Shown: positions 9,345 to 62,074 of the stretch, piece by piece | Layout of the letters: every line of letters begins with the position of its first letter | Numbering within the stretch: the stretch's first letter is position 1 | DNA from: a virus | Lineage: Duplodnaviria; Caudoviricetes | DNA length: 64,000 bases | Direction: 5' to 3' (one strand) | IMG/VR virus record: IMGVR_UViG_3300031998_000011 | Coordinates: 96,001 to 160,000 of that record | Made by a program: the position numbers and the translations under genes | Notes under the pieces: model-generated | The model's database searches: none | The model's input: only the letters and a program-made list of their open reading frames with translations | Told to the model about the DNA's origin: nothing

Positions 9345-10124
9345 ATGAACGTCCGGACAGTACAGCACAGCATGCTGAAACGCGCCGGGCTCTTCGGCAA
9401 TACGATGCTGGGGCGCTGGATCACGGACACGATGGGTCCGCACACGTTTGTGTCTGATGCGCTCGGTGCATCCGCGCTGGACATGATCGACCACCAGGCC
9501 AAGACACAGCTCGGCTGGAACAAGCCGACAGGCGGCAGTCCCAACGATGCCTATGGCCAGGAATACGCGAGGGCGCAGCAGCGGCTGAATGAAGGTCTGG
9601 CAAAAGCGCAGCAGCGCCAAGCGGCCGCCCGACAGAAGCAGCTGGCTCAACAGCAGGCCCAGGCATCGCGCAACAACGAGCGCCTGATGGCGGCCTACAT
9701 GGCCGGCAACAATCAGCAGCTCGCCAAGCAGAACCAGCGTGCGGTGCAAGGACGTGCGATCACCAACAGGCAGCTCGTCTCAGCCAGGAGCAATGCGCTT
9801 GTCAAAGTGCAGCCACAGCGACAGCAACAGGTTCGTATGGCACCGCCTCCGCAGTCTACCGGATTCAAACAGCCAGGCCCCAATGCGTACGCCAGAGGCC
9901 GTATCTCCAGTGGAGGACAGACCTGGATTACATGGTCGGATGGCGGGATGACGCCAGCAGACGGTACGTACAGATCCTACAACAGAGCAACTGACAGACC
10001 ACCGGTGCAGAAACCGCGCATGGCACCTCCAAGGCCTGTTGCAAAGCCTGCGCCTACTTCAGGTCCGCGACCAAGCGCGGGACGCAATAGGATGACAGGT
10101 CCAGCACAGCTGGTGAACATGTAA
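9345..10124 (+). CDS. Gln/Pro/Arg-rich protein with K-x-A leader (putative virion internal protein)
   Basis: MNVRTVQHSMLKRAG closely matches the leaders at 35598 and 37421. Confidence 0.7.
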   Translation: MNVRTVQHSMLKRAGLFGNTMLGRWITDTMGPHTFVSDALGASALDMIDHQAKTQLGWNKPTGGSPNDAYGQEYARAQQRLNEGLAKAQQRQAAARQKQLAQQQAQASRNNERLMAAYMAGNNQQLAKQNQRAVQGRAITNRQLVSARSNALVKVQPQRQQQVRMAPPPQSTGFKQPGPNAYARGRISSGGQTWITWSDGGMTPADGTYRSYNRATDRPPVQKPRMAPPRPVAKPAPTSGPRPSAGRNRMTGPAQLVNM

Positions 10125-10128
10125 GAAC

Positions 10129-10156
10129 AGCCCCTGCAACCCAGGGGCTTTATTTT
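10129..10156 (+). terminator. Intrinsic terminator
   Basis: AGCCCCTG-caacc-CAGGGGCT followed by TTATTTT. Confidence 0.8.
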
Positions 10157-10186
10157 ATATAGTGGAACAACAAAGGAGAACGCAGC

Positions 10187-12619: not shown

Positions 12620-12655
12620 TCGTTGACCCGTGCTCTTCCATAAGAGGAATCACCA

Positions 12656-13957: not shown

Positions 13958-13958
13958 T

Positions 13959-14690
13959 ATGAACATACAGACAGTACAGCAGGCGCTGTTCAAATATGCT
14001 TCCATGTCTTCTGACGAGCGCAGGCTGCGCCGTCTGGCCCGGCCGTTCTACCCGGCCGTCGGACGCCGTTCCTGGGAACATGTCAACCAGGTGAAGCAGA
14101 ACGCCGAGATGATGACCCAGGGCCTGGAACACCGGCCGCTGACTCTGCAGGAGAAGGCTGCCATCTATTTCCACGACTGCGCCATCAGACAGCGCGGTAC
14201 AGGCAAGGAGCACGGCAAGTATGGCAGGGAGACGGCCATTCCGCTGTTGCTGTCTACCGGTATCTTCAACGACAAGCAGCTGAAAGAGATCGGGCAGGCC
14301 ATCCTGGAGCACGACACGCTGAATGCCACCGGGCGGAAGTTCTCCAACAGGACCGGCGAGGTTCTGGCATCTGGTGATGCAAACACGCCGGATCTGCCGT
14401 GGCTGCTGAACAAGTTCTACAACTGGCAGCTCCAGAACAATCCGGACAAGAACACGTGGCCGGCGGACATCTACGAGACGGCTATCGAAGAGTTCGGCAA
14501 CAAGTCCACGGAGAAGTTCCCGGCGCTGTACAACAAGTTCCACGGGGACCGTGTTCAGAAGTTGCGCGACCAGATCGACAGCATGTCACAGGATGACATG
14601 TGGAACATGGTGCAGAAGTACCGCCGGAAGCACCGTTTTGACGAGCTGGATGAGCGGTTGGGCAAGCCACCGATGTTCCAGCCGGTGTAA
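13959..14690 (+). CDS. HD-domain phosphohydrolase with K-x-A leader
   Basis: EHVNQV...YFHDCA...EHG...EHD...GDA pattern; N-terminal MNIQTVQQALFKYA. Confidence 0.75.
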   Translation: MNIQTVQQALFKYASMSSDERRLRRLARPFYPAVGRRSWEHVNQVKQNAEMMTQGLEHRPLTLQEKAAIYFHDCAIRQRGTGKEHGKYGRETAIPLLLSTGIFNDKQLKEIGQAILEHDTLNATGRKFSNRTGEVLASGDANTPDLPWLLNKFYNWQLQNNPDKNTWPADIYETAIEEFGNKSTEKFPALYNKFHGDRVQKLRDQIDSMSQDDMWNMVQKYRRKHRFDELDERLGKPPMFQPV

Positions 14691-37420: not shown

Positions 37421-38113
37421 ATGAATATCCAAACTGTTCATTCCAGTATGGTCAAGCGGGCGGGCGCCAAGGGCGAACTCGCCAGCAATCTCGCCCAGGC
37501 CGGTCTGGCTCAGATCCCGACCGTTGTTACCCAGATTCCTGGCGTCATCAATGGCGCCGGCAGCATCGTCGGTGCTTTCTCCAGCCCGGCTACCGAGGCT
37601 GAAGAATCCAAGTGGGACGATGGCGACAGCGAAGTGGCTGGTCTCCTTCCTGGTGTCGCCGGCTACCGCATGGCGCGTCGTCGCAAACGCCAGCTCAAGG
37701 CCGATGAAGGCGGCACTCCGCACTATTGGTCACAGGCCTTTGGCCCGCTGTCCGCTCTTCTGATTGCGTCTGGTCTCGGTGCTCTCGGCGGTGGTGTCGT
37801 CGGCGGTGCCACCAACGGATTCAAGAATGACACAAATGCTCTCATCGGCGCTGGTATCGGTGCTGGTGTCGGTGCCGGCGGTGCTGCTCTCTCCGAGCTT
37901 GGTGCTCTGATTGCGGCTGCCATCAAGCGTCGTCGCTCCAAGGAAGAGCAGAAAGCCTATGCGAACTCTAGTACCGCTTCCGAGTGGCTGGTTCCCGGCG
38001 TTGCCACGTACAATGCGTGGAAGACGATGGGTCGTGTGATCGGTGACTCCGAGGAACGCGAAGCCGCCAAGGCGAAAGAACAGGCTCCGGCTGGCGCACT
38101 TGCGACTGCGTAA
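37421..38113 (+). CDS. Glycine-zipper protein with K-x-A leader
   Basis: MNIQTVHSSMVKRAG; GAGIGAGVGAGG. Confidence 0.75.
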   Translation: MNIQTVHSSMVKRAGAKGELASNLAQAGLAQIPTVVTQIPGVINGAGSIVGAFSSPATEAEESKWDDGDSEVAGLLPGVAGYRMARRRKRQLKADEGGTPHYWSQAFGPLSALLIASGLGALGGGVVGGATNGFKNDTNALIGAGIGAGVGAGGAALSELGALIAAAIKRRRSKEEQKAYANSSTASEWLVPGVATYNAWKTMGRVIGDSEEREAAKAKEQAPAGALATA

Positions 38114-42515: not shown

Positions 42516-43238
42516 ATGAACAACATTGATTTCATGGTGAAGGTCGCCACAAAAGACCGCTCTATCGACGTGCTCCGCAGCATGATGGCTCTGCAGAAGA
42601 AAGCTGCTTTCGTTCCAAACGGAAACCCGACGCAGGCCCCAAACCAGCAGAACCAGGAAGCTGTTGACTATGGTGCGATTGCGCAGCAGATCATCAACGG
42701 TACAGCGGGTACGCAGCCCGCGCAGACTTCCAGTAAGCCTGCGAAAGCCGGAACAAATGGAAACTCGCGTTTCAGTTTCAATCTGACTCCTGGCGCGGAA
42801 TCCACCCTTCGTGGTATACTTGCCATGGGCGGTGCGGCTGGCGGTAGTACTGCTGGTTTCCGTGGCGGCGGCTGGCTCGGCGGCAGAGTTGGTCAGGGCA
42901 TTGGCAGAGGTATCGGATACCTGCGTGGTTCTATCGCAAACAGAAATCTTCTGAATCCTGGCAGATTCCTGACTGGTCATCCTGAGCGTGCTCTCGCAAT
43001 ACCAGGTGGTTATGCGACCAGTTCCAATCTTGCGACAACGGGTAATATGGCACGTACTATCGGTAATGCGGGTCGTTCCGCTATTACAAGCCGGATCGGT
43101 GCTGTTGGTCGTAACATCGGCACAAATATCGGTCGTGGTATCGGTGCCGTTGGTGGCGGTATCGGTGGTATGGCGCTTGGAACGCTGGCTGGCGACGCTC
43201 TGTTCGGTGCCACGCATACTGACAAGGGCCGTGCATAA
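42516..43238 (+). CDS. Glycine-zipper protein with K-x-A leader
   Basis: MVKVA/LQKKAA; GxxxG runs; ends DKGRA. Confidence 0.75.
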   Translation: MNNIDFMVKVATKDRSIDVLRSMMALQKKAAFVPNGNPTQAPNQQNQEAVDYGAIAQQIINGTAGTQPAQTSSKPAKAGTNGNSRFSFNLTPGAESTLRGILAMGGAAGGSTAGFRGGGWLGGRVGQGIGRGIGYLRGSIANRNLLNPGRFLTGHPERALAIPGGYATSSNLATTGNMARTIGNAGRSAITSRIGAVGRNIGTNIGRGIGAVGGGIGGMALGTLAGDALFGATHTDKGRA

Positions 43239-46600: not shown

Positions 46601-48414
46601 ATTACGTGGAAGGCAAACTGAAAGAAGCCCATGTTCACGCAGACGATGACCTGGTCGATCCTGAGACCGGCCGCGAGATTCCAGGTGTTCTCACAGGATT
46701 CACCTATGTTCATAAGCTGAAGCACCTGGCTGAGTCCAAGTTGTCAGCCCGTGGCACTGGTGAATACTCTGCAGACGAAACACCCAGTGGAGGCGGCCGC
46801 ACTGGCAGCAAACGCTTCGGTTCTCTTGAAACATCGGCACTCGTTGGACATCAGGCATTTGAGACGCTCAAGGACGCCAAGATCCTGCGCGGTCAATCCA
46901 ACGCAGACTTCTGGCGGTCCATCAGAACAGGCTCCATTCCTGTGATGCCCGGTGAGCCGCTGGTTCATAAGAAGTTCTTTGCACATCTCATCGGCTCTGG
47001 TGTGAACGTCCGCAAGACCCAGAAGGGCATCAGCACGTTTGCGCTTTCCAATGACGATGTGAATGAACTGACCGGACCAAGAGAGCTCCGCTCCAGAGAC
47101 ACGTATGAAGCCAAGAACTTCCGTCCAATCGACGGCGGTCTGTTCGGTCAGGACGTGTTCGGCATCAACGGCGACAAGTGGGGCTACATCAAACTCGATG
47201 AGCCGGTTCCGAACCCTGTCATGGAAGAACCACTTGCCAGACTTCTCCGTATGCCGGACAAGACTTTCATCGGTGTTGCGACCGGCAAGATCGAGTACAA
47301 TGGCATCCGTGGCCCGCTGCAGCTCCGTGATGCACTTGCGAACATTGACCTGAATAAGGAAGCCAAGAACGCGCTGATCGAACTGAAGAACGCTCCGACC
47401 AGTAAGAAGGATGCAATGCTGAAGCGCTACGTGGCAATAGAGCGCATGCGCCGTGCAGGTGTGAGTCCTGACAAGTACATGCTGGACAAAATCCCGGTGC
47501 TGCCTCCGCAGTTCCGTCCAATCACGTCGCACAACGGTCTGACGATGGTGGCTGACAGCAACTATCTGTATGCTCAGCTTCTGGATGCCAGAGATGATGT
47601 GAGAGATGCGCGGGATCTACCGGAAGAGTTCCAGCAGCAGGCTCGTGAACGTCTGTACAAGGACTGGAAGGAATTGACCGGTCTGTACGAACCAGAAAAC
47701 AAAGCCTTCAAGGCTAAGCATATACAAGGACTCCTGAAGTGGGCGCTGGGTGACAGTCCGAAGTTTGGTGCAGCGCAGAGAAAGGTTATCAGCTCTACTG
47801 TAGACACCGTGGGCCGTGGCGTCATTACACCGAATCCCAGACTGAAACTCAATGAAGTCGGTATTCCGGAAGAGATGGCTTTCGGCATATTCTCGCCGCT
47901 GATCGAGCGCGGTCTGGTGCAGCGTGGCTACACTCCAGTGGAAGCCATAAAGCAAGTTCATGACAAGTCTCGGCAGGCTAAGGAACTGCTGACGGAAGTC
48001 ATGAAGACACACCCGGTTATTATGAATCGTGCACCGACGCTGCATAAGCTGAGTGTCATGGCGTTCAACCCGGTACTTGTGACAGGACACGCGCTTCAGA
48101 TCAATCCGAGTATCGTTGTCCCGTTCGGGGCCGACTTCGACGGTGACACCGTGAACATCCATGCGCCAATGTCTGACAATGCCCGTGAAGAGGCCAGACG
48201 TAAGATGTTCCCGGAGCGGAACCTGATTGCCATGAAGAACCGTCAGATAGCGTACAAACCTGAGAAGGAATACCTGCAGGGTCTGTACACTGCGAGCCAT
48301 ATTAACGATAAGTCCGGTGTACGCCCCATCTTAGTTAAGGATCTGAAGGAGGCGCTTGAGGCTTATCGCAAGGGACTCATCAACATTGACGATCCCATTG
48401 ACATTAAGAGCTAA
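43690..48414 (+). CDS. rpoBC: RNA polymerase fusion: beta middle/C-terminus + beta' N-terminus with catalytic site; contains an intein
   Basis: beta: GEGGV..DEMRTVQPSFLGFVDPVRSPE, YEDA, GDKIAGLHGNKG, SPLGVTSRNN, KLKHL, KRFGSLE; beta': GGLFG..FG, PVLPPQFRP, NRAPTLH, FGADFDGD. Confidence 0.95.
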   Translation: MPEAPVSPIQAAGTAMTNIRLTPDKPTKTAADWVRDMRMSPSVNKTTTGVETASVTGDLMLATSKKLLGISRGEREPDPKDSLEFQRFYGPAEYFAEHVLRDGNKLGRNILWKATNVGNLDFMPVNALDKHISDVYYDSKLAQMIDGSSPLETVDASYKTTRIGEGGVGDLDSAPDEMRTVQPSFLGFVDPVRSPESFRVGLDVYMTKNVMKGSDGKLYQKFINAHTGKEELVDSETIAKSVVTTPEMMNSKTKSVFAMGGPTGVRIVPRKDVDYYLPRADEAYSMSSNMVTMPSAVIGMRLLMGCLHPDTNVLIADDHNMIHMMPAKYLNAHKQRIPGMTSEFKTACYDMQNTVAKLTQKPRWFKKIVTKSGRVLVTSYDHRWPVLINGKMTLVQARDLKPGDTILRSAFRDVPNRRTFLNKHLITKDVAFFLGLLCRSAKSNKRGSVTFRYKCGADVRIRDAIHYVWGDCKPVIRQYKKDGFYCMTVRCEAIWQYVEDHIGFTDSTRDIPTEILSTYAEIVAEFLNGYTCDDTMMGTDSNEDIWILFIPNMKVRDELSFLFARIGTDTLYRDAPGADPNHVEIALKISDTSRLWNDMYKDTIKYVWEGPRCPIMVDIDINDNMYAVANGIVTHNSKYPLQAISLDNREAPLVRTLDEASGKDMSSLVGKFLGARFAPQGGVVTAVRKDRIDVIWDDGSKGAVPLYVNFPMNAKGFINNTPVIKAGMPFKKGQILASSNYTDKDGTAALGINLKSGWISWKGGTYEDAVVISEEAAKKLTSTTMYNTSVDLDKTISLGKKNYITWKPAEYTKEQMEQLDDNGVVRPGTVLHKGDPMILAVRTSEPSPGTMGKRILTDLSETWDHDHEGIVTDVVRTRKGVKVFTTVTAPAEIGDKIAGLHGNKGTIAQILPKEQMPQTKQGTPLDICFSPLGVTSRNNTAQLYEALLGKVAKKTGQIQIMPAFFEGDLHDYVEGKLKEAHVHADDDLVDPETGREIPGVLTGFTYVHKLKHLAESKLSARGTGEYSADETPSGGGRTGSKRFGSLETSALVGHQAFETLKDAKILRGQSNADFWRSIRTGSIPVMPGEPLVHKKFFAHLIGSGVNVRKTQKGISTFALSNDDVNELTGPRELRSRDTYEAKNFRPIDGGLFGQDVFGINGDKWGYIKLDEPVPNPVMEEPLARLLRMPDKTFIGVATGKIEYNGIRGPLQLRDALANIDLNKEAKNALIELKNAPTSKKDAMLKRYVAIERMRRAGVSPDKYMLDKIPVLPPQFRPITSHNGLTMVADSNYLYAQLLDARDDVRDARDLPEEFQQQARERLYKDWKELTGLYEPENKAFKAKHIQGLLKWALGDSPKFGAAQRKVISSTVDTVGRGVITPNPRLKLNEVGIPEEMAFGIFSPLIERGLVQRGYTPVEAIKQVHDKSRQAKELLTEVMKTHPVIMNRAPTLHKLSVMAFNPVLVTGHALQINPSIVVPFGADFDGDTVNIHAPMSDNAREEARRKMFPERNLIAMKNRQIAYKPEKEYLQGLYTASHINDKSGVRPILVKDLKEALEAYRKGLINIDDPIDIKS
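44605..45597 (+). mobile_element. Intein (331 aa) with LAGLIDADG-type endonuclease domain
   Basis: Starts CLHPDT, block B TSYDHRW, ends ANGIVTHN followed by Ser; removal restores RLLMG-SKYPLQA (bacterial RALMGANMQRQA); FFLGLL, EFLNGY, LSFLFARIG blocks. Confidence 0.92.
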
Positions 48415-48450: not shown

Positions 48451-49416
48451 ATGCCATACATTCCCTACAGTCAGTTCATGCGCAAAAGCGCAGTCGCCGT
48501 TCTTACACCTGAAGCCATGCAGGCAGCTATGCAGCCGCCTCCGCAGGACCCTGGTATGATGGGAGGCCAGCCCCCGATGGATCCCTCCATGCAGGGCGGT
48601 ATGATGCCTCCCGGCGGCGCACCTCCGATGGATCCGTCCATGATGGGTGGTCAACCGCCTGCCGGTGGTCAGGCACCTATGCCTCCGATGGGTGGTGCCC
48701 CTGCGCCAGCCCCAGCACCTGCCGGTGGTCTTCCGCCTGAGATCATGCAGGACCAGATGTTCATTCGGTTCCTTGCAGAAGCCTTCGGCGTTATGCTGGA
48801 TCCACAGTCTGGTCAGTTCTTTGATCCGAACGGACAACCGGTTCCTCCCGAAATGCTGATGCAGGCTTACCAGGCATATATGCAGGCCATGCAGCAGATG
48901 CAAGGTGGAGCAATGCCGATGGATCCTTCCATGCAGGGCGGTCAGCCCCCGATGGACCAGATGGGTGGTGCTCCAATGGATCCCGCGATGATGCAGGGTC
49001 AGCCTCCTATGGATCCGGCAGCTGGTGGTATGCCTGCTGAAGGTGAACAGCCGATGGATCCCATGATGCAGGAACTGTCCGATCTTCTGGTTTCTGTTGT
49101 CGAGGACTCTGTTGTGACTCCGCTGAAAGATGCGGTGGAAGCCATCAACAAACAGATGAACGATCTGAAAGAACTCATCAAGGGTATGCGCGATGAGATG
49201 GACGTGGTTCGGGACCAGGTTGATGCACAGGAGCACACTACAGACAACCGTTCTGAAGAGGATACGGATGCCGAAAAAGCACTGCGTGAGCAGATTGCTG
49301 CTGATTTGAACCCGACGGTTCCTGTCGAACCTGAAGTCAAGACCGCGTCTGTTCAGCAAGAACCGGCTCAGTGGCGCCCGGTCAATATTATGGATGTTCT
49401 CAATAAACGAGGCTGA
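48451..49416 (+). CDS. Pro/Met/Gly/Gln-rich low-complexity protein with C-terminal coiled coil
   Basis: Multiple PMDP repeats; FMRKSA leader. Confidence 0.75.
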   Translation: MPYIPYSQFMRKSAVAVLTPEAMQAAMQPPPQDPGMMGGQPPMDPSMQGGMMPPGGAPPMDPSMMGGQPPAGGQAPMPPMGGAPAPAPAPAGGLPPEIMQDQMFIRFLAEAFGVMLDPQSGQFFDPNGQPVPPEMLMQAYQAYMQAMQQMQGGAMPMDPSMQGGQPPMDQMGGAPMDPAMMQGQPPMDPAAGGMPAEGEQPMDPMMQELSDLLVSVVEDSVVTPLKDAVEAINKQMNDLKELIKGMRDEMDVVRDQVDAQEHTTDNRSEEDTDAEKALREQIAADLNPTVPVEPEVKTASVQQEPAQWRPVNIMDVLNKRG

Positions 49417-49419: not shown

Positions 49420-50526
49420 ATGGAACAGGGCGTTATCAAGCAGGCCGCGCCGGTACCGATGACACATACAAGTCGTCAGGCTTGGATTGACAATCAGAAT
49501 TTTCAGAACAAGATTCGTGATATTCTGAATAGATTCAGTTCTGATGTGAAGTCTGAAATGGATAGACAGCAGCCGCCACCTGGTATACAGCCTGTATCTG
49601 GTGTGCAGGGCAAGTGGTTCTTCCGGCGGCCTGCATCAGATGCGCCTTTCCTTGATTCTACGATTGATCCAAAACTGCAGGGCAGAACAACGACGAGGAA
49701 AACAGCAATGCTGACTTATACTGATTCCATGCAGAAGTATGCAAAAACACCTTATGCGGAACTGGCTGAAAGACGTGACGCTGGAGATGCAGAGGTCGTG
49801 AATGCTCTGAATACATCTACGCCAGCGGAGCTCGGCTGGAAGGCACTCGGTGCTGGTCTTGGTGCCGGCGGCGGTTATTTGGTGTCCAGATGGCTCCGTC
49901 GTAACGGTACGAAGAAGCAGCGCATGCTCGATATGCTGATTGGTGCTCTGATCGGCGGTGGTGGTGCTCATATTGCCCTGAACAGTGGGACTGACAACAG
50001 CGGTCTGACACGTGCGGAGAAACTTCGTGCAGATGTTTATCGTGAATCGAAAGGTCAGACTGGCCCTGGTGATGTTGATCCCCGTGCAAAAGCATACACA
50101 GGGAAAGACATGTTTATGGATGCCTATGGCGCATTGACCAGAGGTGTCGGCGCACTCGTTGGCGTGAAAGTCGGTGATGCTGTCATTCCTCTTGATACAG
50201 CACTGGCAAATGCTCATACGCACAGACTTGCTCTCAAGAATGGCATTACAAAAGCAGAAATGGGCCAGTACATGTCTACACCGCATACCCAAATATACAA
50301 GAGAGTTACCGGTCCTAATGGACAGGGTACTGTGAATATAATGGGTGGTGAGGGTGCCTGGGCAGGTAACTCCACTGGTAAAGTCCTGCATGGAATTGGT
50401 TCCACTGTGAACAAAGCGATTGGCGGTGTTGGTGGTTACTTCGCCGGCGGCTATATCGGAGATCGTACAGGTAACTGGGTCTATGATCTGGTACACGGTG
50501 ACGAAGCAGACAAAGGGCGTGCATAA
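49420..50526 (+). CDS. Glycine-zipper virion protein with K-x-A leaders
   Basis: VIKQAA, internal TYTDSMQKYA; GAGLGAGGG; ends DKGRA. Confidence 0.7.
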   Translation: MEQGVIKQAAPVPMTHTSRQAWIDNQNFQNKIRDILNRFSSDVKSEMDRQQPPPGIQPVSGVQGKWFFRRPASDAPFLDSTIDPKLQGRTTTRKTAMLTYTDSMQKYAKTPYAELAERRDAGDAEVVNALNTSTPAELGWKALGAGLGAGGGYLVSRWLRRNGTKKQRMLDMLIGALIGGGGAHIALNSGTDNSGLTRAEKLRADVYRESKGQTGPGDVDPRAKAYTGKDMFMDAYGALTRGVGALVGVKVGDAVIPLDTALANAHTHRLALKNGITKAEMGQYMSTPHTQIYKRVTGPNGQGTVNIMGGEGAWAGNSTGKVLHGIGSTVNKAIGGVGGYFAGGYIGDRTGNWVYDLVHGDEADKGRA

Positions 50527-52393: not shown

Positions 52394-54664
52394 ATGAAGA
52401 GTTTGATCGTTCGCAACGGTCTGATGACCAAGAACGCCGGAGACGAAGGTCCTTCCTTCGAGCAGCAGTTCGGCATTCTCACCAATTCCATGATTGCCGA
52501 GAAGCTGCCGAGCATGGACAACATGAAGCTCGCTTTCCAGCTCATCGAGAAGTCCGATGACGATACCAAAGCATGCGGCGCCGCTGTGTATATGATTGGC
52601 AACTCTGTCGTGTTCGTGCCGTCCTTCTTCAAGGCGAACAAGATTCAGACCGGCGACATGATGTTCGTCGCCCAGACACAGCAGTTCCTGCCTCTGTCCG
52701 ATGCATGGGTTGCGTGGCTGCGTGACAAAGATCTCTCAGATCCCGGCCAGCTCATACCTCGCGAGGCCGTGGGTGACAACAGTTCCGCTAAGGCTACCAC
52801 TATCCGTGACATTGCTGACCCGATCACCAAGACGGCTAAGCAGCAGATGCCAGAGTTATCCGACAAGATCCCTGGACTGTATGTCTGGAACGAGACGAAG
52901 AATACTGCAGAGGACCAGATGAGCAAGTCTGCTAACCGTCTTGCTCCGGTATTCATGCGCGGTCTGCTGTACCTTGATCCTGATATGCAGAAGACGGCTT
53001 CCGACTGCGGCAGCGTTCTGAATGTTGCGCTGCATATGGGCAAAGACGTGGCGGAGTCCATGCTGGATAACCTCATCAAGAACGCCAACTTCATGAACTC
53101 AACGCTGACTTTCTACAGCACGGATGCTGTGAATACCTTTGCCAAGGAAGCGGCAGCCATTGAAGAACGTGAGAACACGCCGACTGTGGAACTCATCCTT
53201 CCGCTGACCAAGGAAGCCAAGACACTCAATTCCCAGGAACTGAAGGCTCTCCACAAGGACGGCTTCTTTATCCGAAAAGTTGCCAACGTTTATCTCGGCA
53301 AGGCTCCTGATGTGGTTCGCCAGAAAAATGTCGAAGGCATGTTCCGTACCCTGAATGCTCCTGGCAAGGCTGGCCTCCTGACTATGAACGGCAACGTTAC
53401 CAAGCACAAAGTCCTGGCGCTTGTCGATACCAGAGACGGCTACGATTGCTGCTGTGGCTGGGAACGTGGCGGGCATTGGGAAGCACCGGCCGAGAACTAT
53501 AAGCGTCCGCGCCAGATGATCGTCATCACCGACGGCGAATATACGGAGCTGCCACATGATGTCATGCACAATGCTCAGGACTTCGAAGAGTGGAAGCCTG
53601 AAATGGCGGAAGGAATCGGCAAGGTCATCACCAACGGCAACTTCAAGAATGTCGAGTGGCATGACATCGTCCTGGTTCCAAGCTCCGGCTGTGCATACAA
53701 GATTCCGGATCGCTGCTGCCACGAAGCCAGCATCTACAGTGTTGCTGCTGAAGACTCCGGCCTGAAGGCCCCGATCATCAGCGAGGCATCTGTTGTCGTT
53801 CCGTTCGGCAGCCGCCTTATCAAGCAGAAAGGCTCCAGCGAGTTCGACCGTCCGATCTCCGTGGACGAAGCTGCCAAGAAGGAAGAAAAGAAGAGCCCGG
53901 ATGCCACCACCCAGTCTCCGTATGTGACGATGGTCACGTTCGAAGTGTTCATGGGTGAGTATCTCAAGAAGAACTACCGCAAAGCCCGTGTTTACAACAA
54001 CGGCAGCGAGTTCGTGATTTCCGGCGACGGTGCTTCCAGTGAGCCGGTCTCCCTGAAGGAAGCCGCGCTGCACCTGGTGAAGGAATACGACATCGAGCCG
54101 GCGGTTGCCAAGATCATGCTCAAGGAAGCCAGCAACGGCGCTACCTATATCAGTCCGAAGAGCCAGACCTACTTCATCGAGAAGAAGGCTGAGGCGTTCG
54201 AGGGCGAGTATAACAACCCGGATGCCGATATCGCTTCCAGCAAATTCATCAACCAGCCGCCGCAGCTCCGCCAGATGGAGATGCCGACGATCCTGGAAGA
54301 CCCGGCCAATCTGGAAAAGGCTGTCGAAACGGCTGCCCAGAACGGCATCAAGGAAGTGTTCGACATAACGGCGCTCAAGATTCTTGCTCGCCAGAACCAC
54401 TTCTTCGACGAGATCCACGACGATATCCCAGGCTTCATGAAGACCATCGACAGCCTGTGCCGCAAGCTGTTCCAGTTCTACTGGCACACGGACAAGATGG
54501 AAGAGAAGTATGGTACAGTGAAAATGAAATCACTCGAAGACAGTCTCAAGTGCACACTTGACAGCCTGTCCGATCTGACCATCTTCTTCAAGCTCCGTAC
54601 CGTGGACGGCACGCAGTCCACAGGCGACGTCACAGGCGAGCTGATGACTGGTCAGATGCTCTAA
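52394..54664 (+). CDS. Large head-associated protein with multiple K-x-A sites
   Basis: MTKNAG, ITKTAK, MQKTAS, IRKVAN, IEKKAE; position in the head operon. Confidence 0.7.
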   Translation: MKSLIVRNGLMTKNAGDEGPSFEQQFGILTNSMIAEKLPSMDNMKLAFQLIEKSDDDTKACGAAVYMIGNSVVFVPSFFKANKIQTGDMMFVAQTQQFLPLSDAWVAWLRDKDLSDPGQLIPREAVGDNSSAKATTIRDIADPITKTAKQQMPELSDKIPGLYVWNETKNTAEDQMSKSANRLAPVFMRGLLYLDPDMQKTASDCGSVLNVALHMGKDVAESMLDNLIKNANFMNSTLTFYSTDAVNTFAKEAAAIEERENTPTVELILPLTKEAKTLNSQELKALHKDGFFIRKVANVYLGKAPDVVRQKNVEGMFRTLNAPGKAGLLTMNGNVTKHKVLALVDTRDGYDCCCGWERGGHWEAPAENYKRPRQMIVITDGEYTELPHDVMHNAQDFEEWKPEMAEGIGKVITNGNFKNVEWHDIVLVPSSGCAYKIPDRCCHEASIYSVAAEDSGLKAPIISEASVVVPFGSRLIKQKGSSEFDRPISVDEAAKKEEKKSPDATTQSPYVTMVTFEVFMGEYLKKNYRKARVYNNGSEFVISGDGASSEPVSLKEAALHLVKEYDIEPAVAKIMLKEASNGATYISPKSQTYFIEKKAEAFEGEYNNPDADIASSKFINQPPQLRQMEMPTILEDPANLEKAVETAAQNGIKEVFDITALKILARQNHFFDEIHDDIPGFMKTIDSLCRKLFQFYWHTDKMEEKYGTVKMKSLEDSLKCTLDSLSDLTIFFKLRTVDGTQSTGDVTGELMTGQML

Positions 54665-54676: not shown

Positions 54677-55585
54677 ATGAGCCAGGAATCCGACGTCGAG
54701 ATTCTGGAAGGGCCGGTCGTTCCGGCAGAAAAGACTCCCTCCAACACAAGGGAGTTTTTTCTTAGACCTCCGGATTGGCGATACCAGGCAGCCGTGAAGT
54801 ATCTGAACGACGAGCTGCATGGTATTACGCCAACTATCCCGACGGATATCCATGTCCAGTACGCCGTCCGTGTGCTGCGGGCCTTCAACCAGCCTGCTAC
54901 ACGTATCTACATGGATGTGCTCTGTCCGGATGCCGTGGAGACGATCACGCTGGGTGTCATCATGAAGCACTCGGCGATTACAGCGGACATAGAAAGCTGC
55001 ATCATCAGTGGCAGTACGACGGAAGAGCTGGAACTGGACGGGTTCTACATCCGGCCGGTTGTGTTCGACCTGTATGCCAAGTTGTTCTGCGATCTGTCGG
55101 GGATCACGGCTGTTCATGCCTGGATCCACGACTTTCTTTTAGAGCCCGAACGCCACAGTGAGAATACGACGCTCCTGAAAGCAAGACTGATGGCGTACTA
55201 CGGCGGCAAGAACATGGGCGGCACAGCGGCTGTCACAGGCTTTATCGACAACGAGACCCAGCAGCTCATGAAACAGATCACGGCGACGGAACAGCAGAAG
55301 CGCATCTTCGAGTACGTCGTGAGGGCTACCGATATGCGAGCCGAGGACTATGTCGCGGTCATGGAAGGAGCCGTTAAGAGTATGACGGAAAAAGACTTTC
55401 AGGAGAAGATGCGCGACCGCGAGGAGGCCGGATCCAGTTCGCTTGAGGAACTTGCCGGTCATCTTGAGGAGGGCATCAGAGCATACAGCCAGAAAGAACT
55501 GGAGGCGATCAACTCCTCCGGTCTTGACTTTGTCAACCAATACACTCCCGTAATCATCCGAAAGGAACAGGACGATGGAAAATAA
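54677..55585 (+). CDS. Hypothetical protein (head module)
   Basis: AGGAG RBS. Confidence 0.75.
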   Translation: MSQESDVEILEGPVVPAEKTPSNTREFFLRPPDWRYQAAVKYLNDELHGITPTIPTDIHVQYAVRVLRAFNQPATRIYMDVLCPDAVETITLGVIMKHSAITADIESCIISGSTTEELELDGFYIRPVVFDLYAKLFCDLSGITAVHAWIHDFLLEPERHSENTTLLKARLMAYYGGKNMGGTAAVTGFIDNETQQLMKQITATEQQKRIFEYVVRATDMRAEDYVAVMEGAVKSMTEKDFQEKMRDREEAGSSSLEELAGHLEEGIRAYSQKELEAINSSGLDFVNQYTPVIIRKEQDDGK

Positions 55586-57302
55586 GATATCTTCTTCCGA
55601 TGAGCGCAAGCTGACGAACGCCATCGAAAGTGCTGCCATTCTGGCAAGCAATGACGCATCCCGTGACAGGAACCAGCTCCTTGCGGATGAACTCAAGAAA
55701 GAGGGCGTGGATTCCCGTTTCGCAAAAGTGGCGTCCTGTGCTTTCAACAAGCGTGTCACAGTGCTGACTTTCAAGAAGACGGCAGATGAGCACAAGGCTG
55801 ATCCTTTCGAACTGACGGATGGGGACAAGGTCCTGGAACTGATGACTGGCGAAGCGCTGGAAAAGGCTGCGGCTCTCACTGCCGCCGATTTCGAGATCAC
55901 TGTTACCGGCGCTCCGATGCAGAAGGCAGCCTCTGCCGAGGCTCCTGCCCGTGCCTGCTTTGAGGACACCGTGGACTACGACCGGCTGGTCAAGCACGTC
56001 GAGAACGTCATGACCAAGAACGCGGCCGCCATCTACGAGGTGCTCCAGAAGCAGCGCGATGTCGAAGCCGTTGCTGATTCTCTGAAGACGGAACTGGCTG
56101 ATCACTTCATCAAGGATGCCAGCGCTTCCTATGCGTTCTCCAGTCTGATCAATCACTACGGCGACCGCTTCCAGAACGCCATCCAGGATAAGCTGCCTGA
56201 ACATACGGACTGGACAAAGACTGCGGCAGACGCAATTTTGTTCAATGATCCAGTCTTCGACAAGGCCGCCAAGATGATCGAGATGCACGAAGCCAACGAG
56301 AATCTGAAGGCGGTGCTGGACAAGTACGGCGAAGGGCTCACAGAGTTCTGCAAGTCGGCGGCCATGCTGGGAGATTTCGTCCAGAAGGCCGAGTCTGGCT
56401 TTGTCAAAATGGCGGCTCCACGTATGGCTGCGGAACTTGCTGGTGAGCTGGGTCTCACACCGGCCGCTCTGGGGAACTATGCAGTTGGCGCCATCGACAA
56501 CATGGTCAACGGTGTCGCGAATACAGCCGGTAACGCTTTCTCCAATGCCTATGCTCTGTACCAAGCTGGCAATGCGGCGCACATGGCTCCGAACGAAATC
56601 CTCGATGCAGACTTCCTGACGAAGGATCGCTACAGAGATCGTCTTCTTGGCTGGTCCGACATGACAGCTGATCCTCAGTTCGCCATGTATCCTGCCGAGC
56701 AGGTGTTCCTCGCCACACAGAAAGCGATGGACATGGATACCACACTGGAACGTCCGGACAAGCGCGAGGTGCTTCGCTCTTACGTGGCCCAGCTCCTGGC
56801 TCAGAATAATCGGCTCTCCACGGCGGATATCGCGGCTCTGGCTCAGACTCTTCGCGGTCTTACTAGTGCTGATGAACATGGTGCTCAGCAGATCGCTGTC
56901 AAGTCTGTTAAGGGCATGGATGAAACAAAAGCACCGGAGGCACCGGTTATCAAGGCTGTTGTTGAGGGTCGTCGCGAAGTCAAAGGTGAAGAAAGAGCCG
57001 GTCAGGTTCTGGACACCATCAAAGAGATGCGTGAAGACTACGAGAAAAAGACTGACAAGGCTCGTGAGTCGGAAGGCAACAATGATCGTACACAGCGCGA
57101 ACGTGCGAGAGCTCTGGCTGATGCACAGAATGCTCGAAACCAGTTCCTGACGGATACCATGCATATTCAGATCAGAGCCAACCCACAGGGACAGATTACA
57201 TATTCACCGGGTCGTAACCAGCAACCTCTTACACAGGCTGATATCGACAATATCCTGGCGGCTGCCGAACGTGCCAATCTTGTTCCGGCTCTTCCGGCGT
57301 AA
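55575..57302 (+). CDS. Helical head/core protein with multiple K-x-A sites
   Basis: LEKAAA, MQKAAS, WTKTAA, FCKSAA, FVKMAA. Confidence 0.72.
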   Translation: MENKISSSDERKLTNAIESAAILASNDASRDRNQLLADELKKEGVDSRFAKVASCAFNKRVTVLTFKKTADEHKADPFELTDGDKVLELMTGEALEKAAALTAADFEITVTGAPMQKAASAEAPARACFEDTVDYDRLVKHVENVMTKNAAAIYEVLQKQRDVEAVADSLKTELADHFIKDASASYAFSSLINHYGDRFQNAIQDKLPEHTDWTKTAADAILFNDPVFDKAAKMIEMHEANENLKAVLDKYGEGLTEFCKSAAMLGDFVQKAESGFVKMAAPRMAAELAGELGLTPAALGNYAVGAIDNMVNGVANTAGNAFSNAYALYQAGNAAHMAPNEILDADFLTKDRYRDRLLGWSDMTADPQFAMYPAEQVFLATQKAMDMDTTLERPDKREVLRSYVAQLLAQNNRLSTADIAALAQTLRGLTSADEHGAQQIAVKSVKGMDETKAPEAPVIKAVVEGRREVKGEERAGQVLDTIKEMREDYEKKTDKARESEGNNDRTQRERARALADAQNARNQFLTDTMHIQIRANPQGQITYSPGRNQQPLTQADIDNILAAAERANLVPALPA

Positions 57303-57314: not shown

Positions 57315-58772
57315 ATGATGAAGAAAAGTTTCCTCCCTGAGTCCTTCAACTTCGATGTGCCTCCTGTTGAGATCATTGGCGTTGGCAGCAAAGGTCTGGA
57401 CAAGACTGCGATGGTGAAACGTGCCAGTGCTTTCGATGATGTCATCGAGAAGCTGGAGAAGAAAGCCAATCGCACCTACCTCCATGTTATTACGACTGGA
57501 GCCTATGAAACGTACGGCGCCAATCTGAACTCTGACGGATGGAACGGAGAGTCGTTTGAACTCAAGTTCCCGCATCCTGAGAACATGGCGAAGAAAGCGA
57601 TGGTTCTGGACGGCGGCCTTTCCAAATATCATGATATGACCTATATGAAGGATGGTGCTGTGTACCAGGAACACCAGACCAAGACAGCTGGTGTTGATCC
57701 GTCAGGTGAGATAATCGCCGCCAAGTACAACCCCATGATGAAACGTGGTGAGCTCATCATTGCAGTCGATACCGAGAAATGGGCTTCCAGGCTTCAGAAG
57801 AAAGCCAAAGGTGAGAACATCTACCTGAGCATTGGGGCGTCTGTGCCGTACGACGTGTGCAACATCTGCGGAAGAATTGCAAAGACAGCTTCCGAACACT
57901 GCAGTCACTTCAAGCATCATCGCGGCGAAGTCTATGATTGTGGTGAGCGTGCCTGTGTTATGAACGACCATCCGGACTTCTACGACATTTCTGGTGTGAA
58001 CGTGCCGGCCGACAAGATTGCGTTCGTGCTCCAGGAAGTTGGTCACGGCGACAAGCTGACAAAGACCAGCTCCCTGCACGACATCATGCAGCAGGCGACG
58101 CAGGCAGTCGGTGTCCGTCCGCCAATGGTACTCACGAAGGCCGCCATGATTCTGGGCAAGCTGGCTCGTATGGAGAAGCAGATCGAAGGTATTGTCGAAG
58201 GTGACAAGAAGCCGGACAAAGAGGCATTTGACCATGACGACGATGCCGAAAAAGATTTTGAACTTGAAGTTCAAAATTATCCTGCCGATGAGGTGATCGA
58301 CGGTGCAAACCGCAAAGGCATCCTTCTGACTCCGGGCATGCTGTTCAGACTGCTCGGTAAGGAATGCTCTGATCCAGACAATGCTCTAAAGGATTGTGAC
58401 GACGAGAGTTGTGGCGATCTGTCCTGCATGATGCGTGAACTGGAGGATGACGAGGATGTCAATGACGAGCTGCTGGACGGTTCTTTCGACCAGCATCCGC
58501 CTGTGGATCTGAACCTCGACAGCATTCTGGAGAAGTTCATTCCGATGTTCGGGATGACGGACCCTGCTGTCAATACACGGGTTATCCGCATCACAATCGT
58601 CGGCGCTCCGAAACACGGTACTGTAGACAAGAAGGCGTCTCTGAATAAGTTCGCACAGGAAGCCCTGCGCCGGACATATGCCAGATACCTCATCAGTTTT
58701 GCTGCTCAGAACAACGAAAGTACCTGTATGAACGCCCTCATGAAAATAGCTGGAATCGGGAAACGCGGCTGA
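57315..58772 (+). CDS. Prohead (capsid maturation) protease with Zn-ribbon insertion
   Basis: N.NSD, VYQEH, LSIGASV..DVCNICG...HCSH, FYDISGVNVPAD; upstream of scaffold and capsid genes. Confidence 0.75.
   Translation: MMKKSFLPESFNFDVPPVEIIGVGSKGLDKTAMVKRASAFDDVIEKLEKKANRTYLHVITTGAYETYGANLNSDGWNGESFELKFPHPENMAKKAMVLDGGLSKYHDMTYMKDGAVYQEHQTKTAGVDPSGEIIAAKYNPMMKRGELIIAVDTEKWASRLQKKAKGENIYLSIGASVPYDVCNICGRIAKTASEHCSHFKHHRGEVYDCGERACVMNDHPDFYDISGVNVPADKIAFVLQEVGHGDKLTKTSSLHDIMQQATQAVGVRPPMVLTKAAMILGKLARMEKQIEGIVEGDKKPDKEAFDHDDDAEKDFELEVQNYPADEVIDGANRKGILLTPGMLFRLLGKECSDPDNALKDCDDESCGDLSCMMRELEDDEDVNDELLDGSFDQHPPVDLNLDSILEKFIPMFGMTDPAVNTRVIRITIVGAPKHGTVDKKASLNKFAQEALRRTYARYLISFAAQNNESTCMNALMKIAGIGKRG
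58255..58277. repeat. 23-bp palindromic site, copy 5 (intragenic)
   Basis: ATTTTGAACTTGAAGTTCAAAAT; perfect 11-1-11 palindrome inside the protease gene. Confidence 0.88.
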
Positions 58773-58837
58773 TTACTTGCCGTGTTTTCATTTGATAGAA
58801 CACCAAACCCTGGATTACAACATAAAGGAATCCACTT

Positions 58838-59983
58838 ATGAGCAATCAACTCCAGACCAAGGCGAACCGCGTTGCCGAACTGCTCGCGCAGTACGGTCTC
58901 AACAAGGAAGCCAAACAGACTATCACGCACACCAATCTCCTGGCTCAGAACAATCTCGGTCGCGAGATGACCAATGAGATCCATGAGAACGAAGAAGGCG
59001 TCCAGGCCGATACTGAAGCAGCGGAGAACAAACCCACTGCCAAGATCGACGCCATCCCGAACGCCCAGAACCTGAACACCTCTGCGGAACAGGCCCTCGC
59101 CAACACCGGCAGCACGGTCGAGACCCAGGAATCCGATGGCTCCAGCGCTGAAATGCCTGCTGAACAGGCCAAGAGCGCTGCGGCGTTCGCCCAGGTCCTC
59201 AAGCAGATTCAGGACAAGAAAGCTGCCGCAAAGAAGGAAGAAGATTCCTTCATCACAGCTACTGAAGTGTTCGCCAAGTGGGCGTCTCTCGGCCCGCGTT
59301 CCACGAAGGAAGACGTCGCGGCTGCCCAGGCTTCTCTTGAGAAGCTCGCCTCTGTCAACCCGGCCTTCACCGCGACTCGTGACAACATCATCGCCATGAA
59401 GAAGAACGCGGAAGTCGAAGAACTCGCGGCTGCCGCCGACATCTCTCCCGAAGACGCCGCTGCGGCTCTCGACGCTGCCGCTGCCGCCAATCCGGAAATG
59501 GATGCTCAGATCATGGACGAAGCCACTGGCGAAGCAGTCACTGACCTCGCCAATGCCGAACAGGAAGTCGGCGAACTGACGGAAGGCGCTGAAGCTCTTG
59601 CGGCCGGCGCTTCTGAAGTCCTCGGTACAGAGATCACATCCGACGACATTGCAGATGCTCTTGGCGATGTTGCCGACATGGCGGAAGAAATGGGCGTTGA
59701 TCCCATCGACCTTATCGCTGCTGCGGCCCAGGAAATCCAGCAGGGCGATGAACCCGGTGATGATGACATGGAAGCCGCGAAGGAAATCATCGCGGCGGCT
59801 GCTGAGCAGGGTACATCCCCTGAGCAGATTATTCAGGAACTTGCGGCATCCATTGATGCCGATGAAATGGGCGGTGAAGAAGCCGCTGGCGCAGAGGAAC
59901 CGATTGAGAAGGCAGCTTCGCTGCAGAAACAGTCGCAGAGTCCGCGTGTCGCCTACGTCATCGAACAGCTCAAAAACGTCTGA
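58838..59983 (+). CDS. Acidic scaffold-like protein
   Basis: Ala/Glu/Asp-rich, strong codon bias, lies between protease and capsid genes. Confidence 0.7.
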   Translation: MSNQLQTKANRVAELLAQYGLNKEAKQTITHTNLLAQNNLGREMTNEIHENEEGVQADTEAAENKPTAKIDAIPNAQNLNTSAEQALANTGSTVETQESDGSSAEMPAEQAKSAAAFAQVLKQIQDKKAAAKKEEDSFITATEVFAKWASLGPRSTKEDVAAAQASLEKLASVNPAFTATRDNIIAMKKNAEVEELAAAADISPEDAAAALDAAAAANPEMDAQIMDEATGEAVTDLANAEQEVGELTEGAEALAAGASEVLGTEITSDDIADALGDVADMAEEMGVDPIDLIAAAAQEIQQGDEPGDDDMEAAKEIIAAAAEQGTSPEQIIQELAASIDADEMGGEEAAGAEEPIEKAASLQKQSQSPRVAYVIEQLKNV

Positions 59984-59995
59984 GGAGACTGAAAC

Positions 59996-60433
59996 ATGGC
60001 AGAACAGGCAATGGAAAAGCTCGCTTCCGAGCTGATTGAACGCCTGGCCGCCGTGGAGACTGAGAACAAATCTCTGCGCAAGGTCAACGAAGATCTTCGC
60101 GCCCTGACGCAGCAGATGTCCACAGTCAAGCAGGCTTCCCAGGAAATCAAGCAGGTCGATGAGGACCTGCTTGACTCCACCTGTCAGAGTCTCGTTAAGA
60201 GCGGCGCTCTTAATGCTGATCAGGTGGAACAGGCAAAAGCGATCTTCAAGACAGACATGAATGCCGGCCTGACTGTCATTCAGAGTCTTCTTGACGAGCA
60301 CGCTCAAGTAAAGACTGCTGCGGAACAGGCTTCCCTTGCGGGTGGCACTGTTGTCCACATCGGTCAAAACACACAGCGCAGTCCGGAAGATGAATGCATC
60401 GACCGCATGCGCAAAACACTCGGCCTTCATTAA
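59996..60433 (+). CDS. Small coiled-coil scaffold-like protein
   Basis: MEKLAS, VKQAS, VKTAA. Confidence 0.7.
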   Translation: MAEQAMEKLASELIERLAAVETENKSLRKVNEDLRALTQQMSTVKQASQEIKQVDEDLLDSTCQSLVKSGALNADQVEQAKAIFKTDMNAGLTVIQSLLDEHAQVKTAAEQASLAGGTVVHIGQNTQRSPEDECIDRMRKTLGLH

Positions 60434-60454
60434 ACCTACATAGGAGTTACAACA

Positions 60455-61096
60455 ATGGCTGGCTTCACACGCACCAACTTCGATCAGCAGATCAACCACG
60501 CTGCTGTTCTGGCGCACGGAGCACACCCGAAGTATCGCGTCGAACACGACGGCGAACTCGATGCCTCCACGCCTGAGAAGAAACTCGCGAACTCCGCTAT
60601 CAAGCAGGGTTCGGTGGTTCACCTGGATTCGACCACTGGCAAGTACAACATCGGCCTCGCCGCTGCTTCCAGCATCAACTTCCCGGTGCCCTTCATCTCC
60701 CTCAAGAACGCTTTCGATCCCGATGTGACCACCGGCGTCGAGGGCGACACCCAGACCGTCGAGATCTACGGTTCCACCAACACCTTCAGCTTCCCGAATC
60801 CGCGCCGCTCCACGTTCAGCGCCGTCGGCGGCAAGATCACGGCTATCCCGATGACTGCCGGCTACGAAATCGAAACGACTGAGTTCGTCGATGGTACTTA
60901 TCACATCAACGACGCCCTCACCGCTGCGAAGACCACCAACATCGGCAAGCTGACAGTGGCTACTCAGGTTCCGTTCAAGGCCTCCGGCTCCGAACCGATC
61001 CTCGGCTTCGTCTCCCGCGTTCCTTACACGAACGACGCTTATCTCCAGAAGCGCATCGGGTTCTGGACCAACTTCATCCCGGCTGTCGGGGCCTAA
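60455..61096 (+). CDS. Probable capsid decoration/cement protein
   Basis: Beta-rich, extreme codon bias, directly upstream of the MCP. Confidence 0.6.
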   Translation: MAGFTRTNFDQQINHAAVLAHGAHPKYRVEHDGELDASTPEKKLANSAIKQGSVVHLDSTTGKYNIGLAAASSINFPVPFISLKNAFDPDVTTGVEGDTQTVEIYGSTNTFSFPNPRRSTFSAVGGKITAIPMTAGYEIETTEFVDGTYHINDALTAAKTTNIGKLTVATQVPFKASGSEPILGFVSRVPYTNDAYLQKRIGFWTNFIPAVGA

Positions 61097-61114
61097 TCCA
61101 AGGAGGACTTCACT

Positions 61115-62074
61115 ATGGCTTGGGATCAAATCAAAGTTGCTTCCGTTTCTGAAGACATCCGCGCAAAGTTCGCCACCGGCGACAAGGACATGTGCAAGCA
61201 GGGCACGCTCGCTGCCAACGACTACTTCCGCACAGAAATCCGCTCCAACGGCATCCGTCGTCAGATCACTCCACCTGTCCAGGTCACGAAGGACATGTTC
61301 GACCCGTCCGAGACCTCCGACATTCCGATCATCTACGCCGAGGTCGCTCCTCGCTCGTCCGGCGCCTACATGGTCTCCTTCGAGACTGGCCCGAAGAACG
61401 AGAACATCTACGGCAACAAGATCCGCATCGAACTCAACCGCATCATGACCAAGAAGTACAGCATCGACAAGATCCGTCTCGATGCCTACAAGATGCCTCT
61501 GCTTGAGATCCTCGAAGACCTGCTCCTCAAAGACATCATGGATGTCGAGGACAACGTCACCATCGGTCTCGACAAAGAAATCTGCGGTCCTCTGAACACG
61601 GTCAACCCCTGGATGGGCTGCCGTCGCTATGTCACCTGCGGTGGCATCAGCCGCGAAGCTCTCGTGCACCTCAAGAAGGGCATGCCTGTGGCTCCTGGTC
61701 ATCTCATGACCAAGAAGTTCCTCATGAACGACCTCACCTACTTCGATCTCGGCGCTCTCGACCGTACCGAAGTCGGCGGCGACATGGCTCAGGAAATGTT
61801 CGTCAACGGCGTCACCACCTCCAAGATCCAGGGCATCGACACGGTCGTCACCATCAAGACCGACCTCATCCCGACCAAGGAAGTGTTCATCTACACCGAC
61901 CCGATGTACTACGGCGGCTTCTACGTCTACAACGACGTCACGATGGTCGTCGATGAAGTCGATGACATCTGGATGACCTTCTTCGCCCATGAGTGCGTCG
62001 GCGCCTCCGTGGCCAACAGCCCCGGCGTTGCCCGTGCGTCCCTCACCGGCACCCTCGTCGATTGGGAAGGCTAA
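61115..62074 (+). CDS. Major capsid protein (HK97 fold inferred)
   Basis: 319 aa; very strong codon bias, AAGGAGG RBS, spine-helix-like LLEILEDLLLKDIMDVED, followed by a strong terminator. Confidence 0.8.
   Translation: MAWDQIKVASVSEDIRAKFATGDKDMCKQGTLAANDYFRTEIRSNGIRRQITPPVQVTKDMFDPSETSDIPIIYAEVAPRSSGAYMVSFETGPKNENIYGNKIRIELNRIMTKKYSIDKIRLDAYKMPLLEILEDLLLKDIMDVEDNVTIGLDKEICGPLNTVNPWMGCRRYVTCGGISREALVHLKKGMPVAPGHLMTKKFLMNDLTYFDLGALDRTEVGGDMAQEMFVNGVTTSKIQGIDTVVTIKTDLIPTKEVFIYTDPMYYGGFYVYNDVTMVVDEVDDIWMTFFAHECVGASVANSPGVARASLTGTLVDWEG

Follow-up and report, generated by a model that had tools for sequence, protein, structure and literature searches.

Lys-x-Ala leaders on head proteins of an uncultured tailed phage: a candidate cleavage signal for a predicted gp21-fold head protease

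The window analysed here is a stretch of 64,000 nucleotides, bases 96,001-160,000 of the 179,396-bp genome of an uncultured tailed phage (IMG/VR record IMGVR_UViG_3300031998_000011). The subject is a short protein motif, a hydrophobic residue followed by x-Lys-x-Ala (K-x-A), which ends the N-terminal leaders of many head proteins and may be the cleavage signal of a protease encoded beside them. Genes are named by the position of their first base in the window and the main features are collected in Table 1. The genes are almost all on the + strand. The head module occupies 30.5-62 kb of the window, with the portal gene 30564 at its start. The portal protein has no leader and sets the upstream edge of the tagged block. 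It is followed by a block of about 25 kb consisting mostly of orphan genes, which includes a bacterial-type RNA polymerase (RNAP) in three pieces (38123, 43690 and 50536). The gene order after the orphan block is 52394, 54677, 55575, the protease gene 57315, the acidic scaffold-like gene 58838, 59996, 60455 and the gene of the major capsid protein (MCP), 61115.

Table 1. Features of the head module and of the remote tagged genes (window positions; leaders are N-terminal and end in the K-x-A motif)
Feature	Position	Strand	Details
Remote accessory gene	9345..10124	+	Family 1 leader; net charge +24 (very basic), Gln/Arg/Pro-rich
Remote accessory gene	13959..14690	+	Family 1 leader; phrog_3921 (function unknown)
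Portal protein	30564..32438	+	484 residues align with gp204, the annotated portal of phage Arash, at 23% identity (E 3e-46)
Protein of 759 residues, gene immediately downstream of the portal gene	32447..34726	+	10-residue leader
Small membrane-like cargo protein	35598..35939	+	Family 1 leader
Gly/Ala-rich membrane-like cargo protein	37421..38113	+	Family 1 leader
Cargo protein	38857..40428	+	Family 2 leader; C-terminal domain 43% identical to that of 37421
Cargo protein	40425..41603	+	14-residue leader
Cargo protein with C-terminal Gly-zipper segment	41700..42446	+	Family 2 leader
Gly-rich basic protein	42516..43238	+	Sites at residues 9-11 and 28-30
Small protein with Gly/Ala-rich membrane-like segment	43250..43588	+	Family 2 leader containing T-Y-x-E-F
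RNAP beta fused to N-terminal part of beta-prime	43690..48414	+	Pfam Rpb2_6 1e-55, Rpb1_2 5e-27
Cargo protein	48451..49416	+	Family 2 leader, 14 residues
Cargo protein	49420..50526	+	9-residue leader
Large head-block protein	52394..54664	+	15-residue leader; internal site array at residues 146-297
Core/scaffold-like protein	55575..57302	+	Ten hydrophobic-x-K-x-A sites, every 15-35 residues, at residues 51-280
Head-maturation (prohead) protease, predicted	57315..58772	+	gp21/assemblin-fold domain, about residues 1-230, then helical C-terminal domain
Acidic Ala/Glu-rich scaffold-like protein	58838..59983	+	8 K-x-A sites, the first at residues 23-25
Small helical head protein	59996..60433	+	10-residue leader ending K-L-A
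Major capsid protein, 319 residues	61115..62074	+	phrog_2522 major head protein, 3.9e-9; homologous to Arash MCP gp226

A megablast search of the head region against phage GenBank records gave no match, and sequence searches of Pfam, PHROGs and the PDB found no family for the protease 57315 or for nearly all of the cargo proteins. Relatives were taken from IMG/VR as loci found with the RNAP and with the protease, together with four whole genomes in which the RNAP is 58-81% identical. Among cultured phages, Salmonella phage Arash, a distant relative, and Vibrio phage D69 are linked to this phage by tblastn.

The original prediction for this genome was that unrelated proteins share leaders ending in hydrophobic-x-K-x-A. 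All 12 of the leaders listed are present and translate as written, each with a GGAG/AGGA-type Shine-Dalgarno site upstream, and two leader-bearing genes, 42516 and 59996, can be added to them. In its full form the motif reads Met/Leu/Phe-x-Lys-x-Ala followed by a small residue, and the leaders range in length from 5 residues (M-x-K-x-A) to 31. After removal of the leaders, the 14 tagged proteins of the window are mutually unrelated except for the pair 37421/38857, which share a C-terminal domain and yet bear leaders of different families (Family 1 and Family 2, respectively). Membrane-like segments rich in Gly and Ala are present in many of the tagged proteins, one of which is very basic. No hydrophobic core of 7-15 residues, as in a Sec or lipoprotein signal peptide, was found within the leaders, and the transmembrane-like segments lie far downstream.

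The motif is retained in relatives at many individual sites. Both sites of 42516 are found in its orthologue at the related locus L002, where a leader of a type identical to that of 32447 occurs on a different protein. The site of 59996 is kept in all four orthologues examined, and the N-terminal site of 58838, whose gene lies between those of the protease and the MCP, is also kept in relatives. The sites expected in the large RNAP chain and in the MCP are both present. In RNAP 43690, K-T-A is located at residues 28-30 (the site spans 26-31), directly before the conserved start of the body, and the site is found in four of five relatives although the leaders vary from 14 to 31 residues. The MCP has K-x-A at residues 7-9 (site 5-10). 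A second MCP site, residues 27-31, is better conserved in relatives and reads K-Q-G in 61115, with Gly replacing Ala.

For a count over five genomes, a hydrophobic residue two positions before the Lys was required, with the Lys in the first 22 residues and the motif within the first 24. The motif is found in 60 of the 130 pooled portal-to-MCP genes and in 39 of the 908 others (Fisher 1e-34), and the rate outside the block, approximately 4%, is that expected from composition. For plain K-x-A in the genome described here the values are 13/24 (32447 to MCP) and 10/195 elsewhere (Fisher 6e-9). In the related loci, only one of 34 genes downstream of the capsid gene has the motif. The predicted enrichment in head genes over a composition background is therefore confirmed, and the early genes at 15-29 kb show no excess of the motif, in line with what had been noted: one gene of about 37 fits it, which is the chance level. 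Over the genome as a whole, plain K-x-A close to N-termini shows no enrichment (25 of 219 genes, approximately chance), and in an unbiased scan of gapped residue pairs over all N-termini of the genome K-x-A was not near the top. The pair scan missed K-x-A because the signal is limited to one block, and the claim is therefore restated as block-specific.

It is important to consider whether shared ancestry or composition might produce this pattern, the leader families being leftovers of gene duplication in Lys/Ala-rich helical proteins. The head proteins are indeed rich in Ala and Lys, the plain K-x-A count of 55575 is not above composition (10 against 6.3 expected), and 37421 and 38857 are paralogues. 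However, shuffling within each protein gives 18.2 +/- 4.4 expected hydrophobic-x-K-x-A sites in the block where 58 are observed (outside the block, 70 observed and 60.7 expected). In a register control over the first 25 residues of the block proteins, K-x-A occurs 17 times, compared with 2-6 times for other spacings and 2-8 times for the reversed order. Both Lys codons, AAA and AAG, and all four GCN codons of Ala are used at the sites, so the constraint acts on the protein. Furthermore, the bodies are unrelated, the sole paralogous pair has different leaders, and orthologues replace the leader and keep the motif. An origin by ancestry or composition is already contradicted by these observations, and practically no likelihood is left to it.

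A logo was built from 68 non-redundant N-terminal sites and compared with 233 internal sites; Lys and Ala are fixed in it by definition. Position -2 is Met or Leu (1.9 bits) and the positions adjoining Lys are free. Ala is followed by a small residue in 62% of the N-terminal and 52% of the internal sites, against a background of 28%.

By sequence comparison, the leaders are portable between unrelated proteins. Orthologues of 48451 have four quite different leaders, and K-x-A is always located directly before the start of the conserved body. The orthologue of 35598 in L003 has a leader of Family 2 type in place of Family 1, and the orthologues of 49420 in two relatives likewise have a Family 2 type leader instead of the one found on 49420. 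Such leaders are also borne by non-homologous genes that relatives have at the same insertion points, and the leader families recur across genomes. The further proposal that the leader recruits cargo from anywhere in the genome was overstated, since the motif is found at the chance rate outside the block, where in this genome a complete Family 1 leader is limited to the accessory genes 9345 and 13959. These two genes are clustered, at a distance of about 17-22 kb upstream of the portal gene, and their slots hold other genes in the relative G002. A homologue of 9345 was not found in the relatives G002-G005, and its syntenic slot in G002 is occupied by an unrelated gene without a leader. The gene 13959 was sought directly in five relatives and is present only in the 97%-related G001, with no homologue in G002-G005.

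Several other features of this upstream region were observed. Between the remote tagged genes lies a ligase-like gene (12656-13957) coding for a protein of 433 residues, the C-terminal end of which matches ATP-dependent DNA ligase (phrog_114, 4e-14); its homologue in the relative G003 is inside the head cargo block. RNA ligases have been reported in Arash virions (PMC10585845). Just upstream of 9345, four consecutive small genes (7176-8867; 70-75 residues) encode one hydrophobic helix each and may be holin- or membrane-related. Two adjacent + strand genes, 1010-1432 and 1445-1732, have identical first 20 residues followed by a Gly-rich run. They are located directly upstream of a gene for 1564 residues (1744-6438), and their shared N-terminus is unrelated to the K-x-A leaders. 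At the other end of the window, a 1094-residue antisense open reading frame (58706-61990, - strand) covers the scaffold gene, the small head genes and the MCP gene. It was rejected as a shadow frame of Asp/Glu/Ala-rich genes because the + strand genes have family matches and orthologues.

The motif is also found in the interior of the protease, scaffold and core proteins, in agreement with what had been described earlier: there are 15 K-x-A in 57315, ten hydrophobic-x-K-x-A each in 55575 and 52394, and eight K-x-A in 58838. The conserved C-terminal half of 55575 has no sites, and the positions of its sites are kept in four orthologues. In 52394, four of the ten hydrophobic-x-K-x-A sites are spaced by exactly 22 residues, and the leader and the site positions are conserved in orthologues. 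The arrays were considered as tandem repeats and this was rejected, the segments between the sites being dissimilar in sequence.

The short motif and its regularly spaced repeats in 52394 and 55575 could also be explained by an uncut docking peptide with affinity for the inside of the capsid, for the portal or for the scaffold, the arrays acting as multivalent binders. Some leaders have only five residues, and cleavage of the leaders is so far a prediction, which would suit such a role. However, a docking motif need not be placed at the extreme N-terminus, directly before a conserved body and after leaders of any length. In addition, the motif brackets the protease domain in 57315 and marks the N-terminus of the MCP, which are classic maturation sites. 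Proteases of this fold also typically cut before a small residue, such as the one that follows Ala here; the sites of phage SPN3US, for example, show a preference for Ser at P1' (PMC10052503). Docking without cleavage therefore appears rather improbable.

The gene 57315 directly precedes the scaffold-like genes and the MCP gene, and the order is the same in Arash (gp220-gp226). An AlphaFold2 (AF2) model of the protein was built with 30 homologues (predicted local distance difference test, pLDDT, 78). When residues 1-230 of the model were compared with known structures by VIA-align, T4 gp21 (5jbl_A) was the best match, with Z 11.6 and a root-mean-square deviation of 3.2 over 144 of 165 residues. 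The next fold matches were the proteases of varicella-zoster virus (VZV; 1vzv, Z 6.2) and human cytomegalovirus (HCMV; 8j3s, Z 4.4), with an unrelated entry at Z 4.8. Foldseek likewise gave its highest probability to gp21 (0.75, TM 0.54). By its modelled structure, 57315 is a head protease of the T4 gp21/assemblin fold. Its family is widespread, with at least 127 homologue clusters in metagenomes. Residues His57, His106, His120, His198, Ser172, Ser226, Asp180, Asp224 and Asp233 are invariant in the 30 homologues.

The protease itself is rich in the motif, with its 15 K-x-A comparing to 3.5 expected (p 5e-6). Across 30 homologues with identities as low as 40%, K30-x-A32 and K35-R-A37 never vary, and further conserved sites are located after the protease domain and before the C-terminus. 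This layout is the pattern expected for a self-processing enzyme.

Several further observations were made on the protease and RNAP genes. Residues 180-198 of 57315 hold an invariant Asp-x-Cys-x-x-Cys ... Cys-x-His cluster (C182/C185/C196/H198), an insertion into the protease domain that resembles a zinc knuckle and is absent from T4 gp21. The protease orthologues of G002, G003 and G004 (L009:8309-10963, L010:10001-11929 and L007:10001-11881, respectively) are interrupted by inteins. The insertions fall in two invariant motifs: one follows residue 71, in G-A-N-x-N-x-D, and the other follows residue 181, just ahead of the C-x-x-C knuckle. Hint domains are also present in several homologues from the databases. 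Inteins at invariant motifs fit an essential enzyme. There are RNAP orthologues of 1965-2633 residues, compared with 1574 here, which suggests that they contain inteins too. The relative represented by L005 and L010 (IMG/VR, 192,052 bp, G003) reads TAG as a sense codon: this triplet occurs in frame 59 times in the gene for RNAP and 35 times in that for the protease. Neither gene has in-frame TAA or TGA, and reading TAG as Gln gives full-length orthologues.

The same motif is thus found at the ends of the leaders, in the arrays of 52394, 55575 and 58838, in the protease and at the N-terminus of the MCP. We consider it likely that it is the cleavage signal of the gp21-fold head protease, and that the leaders are removable tags on internal and ejected proteins, similar to the capsid targeting sequence (CTS) of T4. 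Proteins bound for the procapsid interior would carry the motif at the end of a leader of 5-31 residues. This cargo would include Gly-zipper membrane-like proteins, basic proteins and the largest chain of the virion RNAP, and the RNAP pieces that have no leader could enter along with the tagged large chain. Many copies of the motif are carried by the scaffold-like and core proteins 52394, 55575 and 58838 and by the protease itself. After procapsid assembly the protease would trim the leaders, free itself at its own domain boundaries and, if all sites are cut, chop the scaffold and core regions into peptides of 15-35 residues able to leave the shell; T4 likewise degrades its core proteins to peptides. 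The trimmed cargo could then be delivered into the host. By analogy with the T4 sequence, the longer leader families probably serve as a capsid address as well.

It had been proposed that 57315 cuts after K-x-A. The fold of the model and the presence of the motif at the leaders, the domain boundaries and the MCP agree with this, while the cut itself stays a prediction. We regard a scissile bond after Ala as probable. It is favoured because the next residue is small, as in T4, SPN3US and assemblin, because the middle position between Lys and Ala is free, and because the conserved bodies begin right after Ala. A bond after Lys, which would mirror the hydrophobic-x-Glu of T4, is possible but distinctly less expected.

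The link between 57315 and the motif is indirect, and a host enzyme or another phage enzyme might cut the leaders in its place. A host protease is known to remove the capsid and scaffold leaders of Staphylococcus phage 80alpha. However, the motif is invariant in the sequences of the 57315 family itself and co-varies with that family across gut, Salmonella and Vibrio phages, which have different hosts, and the leaders have no hydrophobic signal-peptide core. Cleavage by such an enzyme therefore seems highly improbable.

Several points weigh against cleavage by 57315 and against the role of the leaders as capsid tags. For this phage, both the cleavage and the packaging of these proteins are predictions. 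Cleavage is not analysed in the paper on Arash, where the coverage values seem inflated (100% from 2 peptides) and the supplement consists of a feature table only. The protease has no Pfam family (E up to 10) and no PDB sequence match, its sole PHROG match is phrog_16951 of unknown function, and hhalign of the protease family against T4 gp21 gave a probability of 0.9% and no alignment. Some of the K-x-A sites fall within the folded protease domain and are probably left uncut. The conserved block proteins 34757, 35932, 36390, 38123, 50536, 54677 and 60455 have no N-terminal site, so not all head proteins need a leader. The sites of MCP 61115 and RNAP 43690 have no hydrophobic residue at position -2, and in this respect they depart from the original prediction. 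In this genome Ala is replaced by Gly at the conserved MCP site, and the RNAP of one relative reads K-L-T-A. Finally, leaders as short as M-x-K-x-A, found in relatives and in the Arash RNAP, are too short for an address helix, which weakens the targeting part of the proposal.

If the motif is cut by 57315, a new specificity can be predicted for a head protease of the gp21/assemblin fold: Lys-x-Ala followed by a small residue, nearer to the Ala-Ser bond of the herpesvirus enzymes than to the specificity of the Glu-specific phage enzymes. In a search of the open-access literature, no paper on a Lys-x-Ala motif of phage proteases was found. The motif alone would predict capsid-packed proteins, namely the virion RNAP, membrane-active ejection proteins and accessory cargo, in a poorly annotated family of phages of about 160-190 kb, where more than 90% of the motif-predicted capsid-packed proteins have no family match. 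What is new here is the replication in relatives, the whole-genome statistics and the evidence for portability. The cultured Arash and Vibrio phage D69 make the prediction directly testable, and a tag of 5-14 residues could find use in packaging foreign proteins into these capsids, in the way the T4 CTS is employed.

It is useful to compare this system with those that are better characterized. Arash (OQ632216) and the Vibrio phages D69, D148 and D181 have a homologous portal, split RNAP, protease (27-30% identity) and MCP. In Arash, the motif occurs in the MCP at residues 25-30, the RNAP beta chain gp206 starts with M-P-K-S-A, and gp220 and gp223 contain arrays. Short N-terminal leaders are rarer in Arash and the Vibrio relatives than in the phage described here. 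The beta chain gp206 is the most abundant Arash virion protein by spectra; the same paper labels the protease only as a structural protein and mentions neither a protease nor cleavage (PMC10585845).

In T4, the CTS (MKTYQEFIAE) is carried by the internal proteins IPI-III and removed by gp21. It is cut once and loads any protein fused to it (PMC8442874). As in the present phage, short N-terminal tags that end in the protease motif are found on unrelated proteins, the protease fold is common to both, and scaffold or core proteins have many sites. However, the T4 enzyme cuts at (Leu/Ile)-x-Glu and not at hydrophobic-x-Lys-x-Ala, and gp21 has no detectable sequence similarity to 57315. The MCP of the present phage is small, and the phage is unlike T4 in its other parts as well. 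Here, several interchangeable leader families tag about half of a 30-kb block, including an RNAP chain.

The Family 2 leaders share the core M-x-T-Y-x-E-F with the T4 CTS, and four independent leaders contain the exact T-Y-x-E-F. A looser Family 2 pattern is found in nine of the 130 block genes and in two of the 908 elsewhere in the five genomes. Kinship with the T4 sequence is suggestive but unproven, since with five shared residues descent, chance and convergence are not separable. Conceivably, the address and the cut site go back to an ancient system in which they form separable modules. The T-Y-x-E-F core would be recognised by a part common to both phages, the cut motif would have changed from x-Glu to Lys-x-Ala, and capture by the protease would load the M-x-K-x-A cargo. 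The only obvious part common to T4 and this phage is the gp21-fold protease. We consider this unlikely; if true, the head protease would double as the cargo receptor in tailed phages.

The systems of phiKZ gp175 and SPN3US gp245 also combine a gp21-type protease with N-terminal propeptides on many internal and ejection proteins, several motif copies inside the propeptides, self-cleavage and a virion-packaged multisubunit RNAP. The enzyme gp245 cuts after A-x-E, nearly always freeing N-terminal propeptides, and the motif recurs within the propeptides (PMC10052503). Most propeptides in these phages exceed 100 residues and the motif is A-x-E, whereas here the leaders are 5-31 residues long and Ala is the last residue of the motif. 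The present genome has 179 kb, its capsid protein is small and its RNAP is split differently.

The assemblins of herpesviruses (VZV, HCMV) cut (Val/Leu/Ile)-x-Ala before Ser. Their fold is common with that of 57315, and a fixed Ala followed by a small residue would fit a scissile bond of the Ala-Ser type. The Lys two positions before Ala and the hydrophobic residue four positions before it, which are both present here, are not part of the assemblin pattern.

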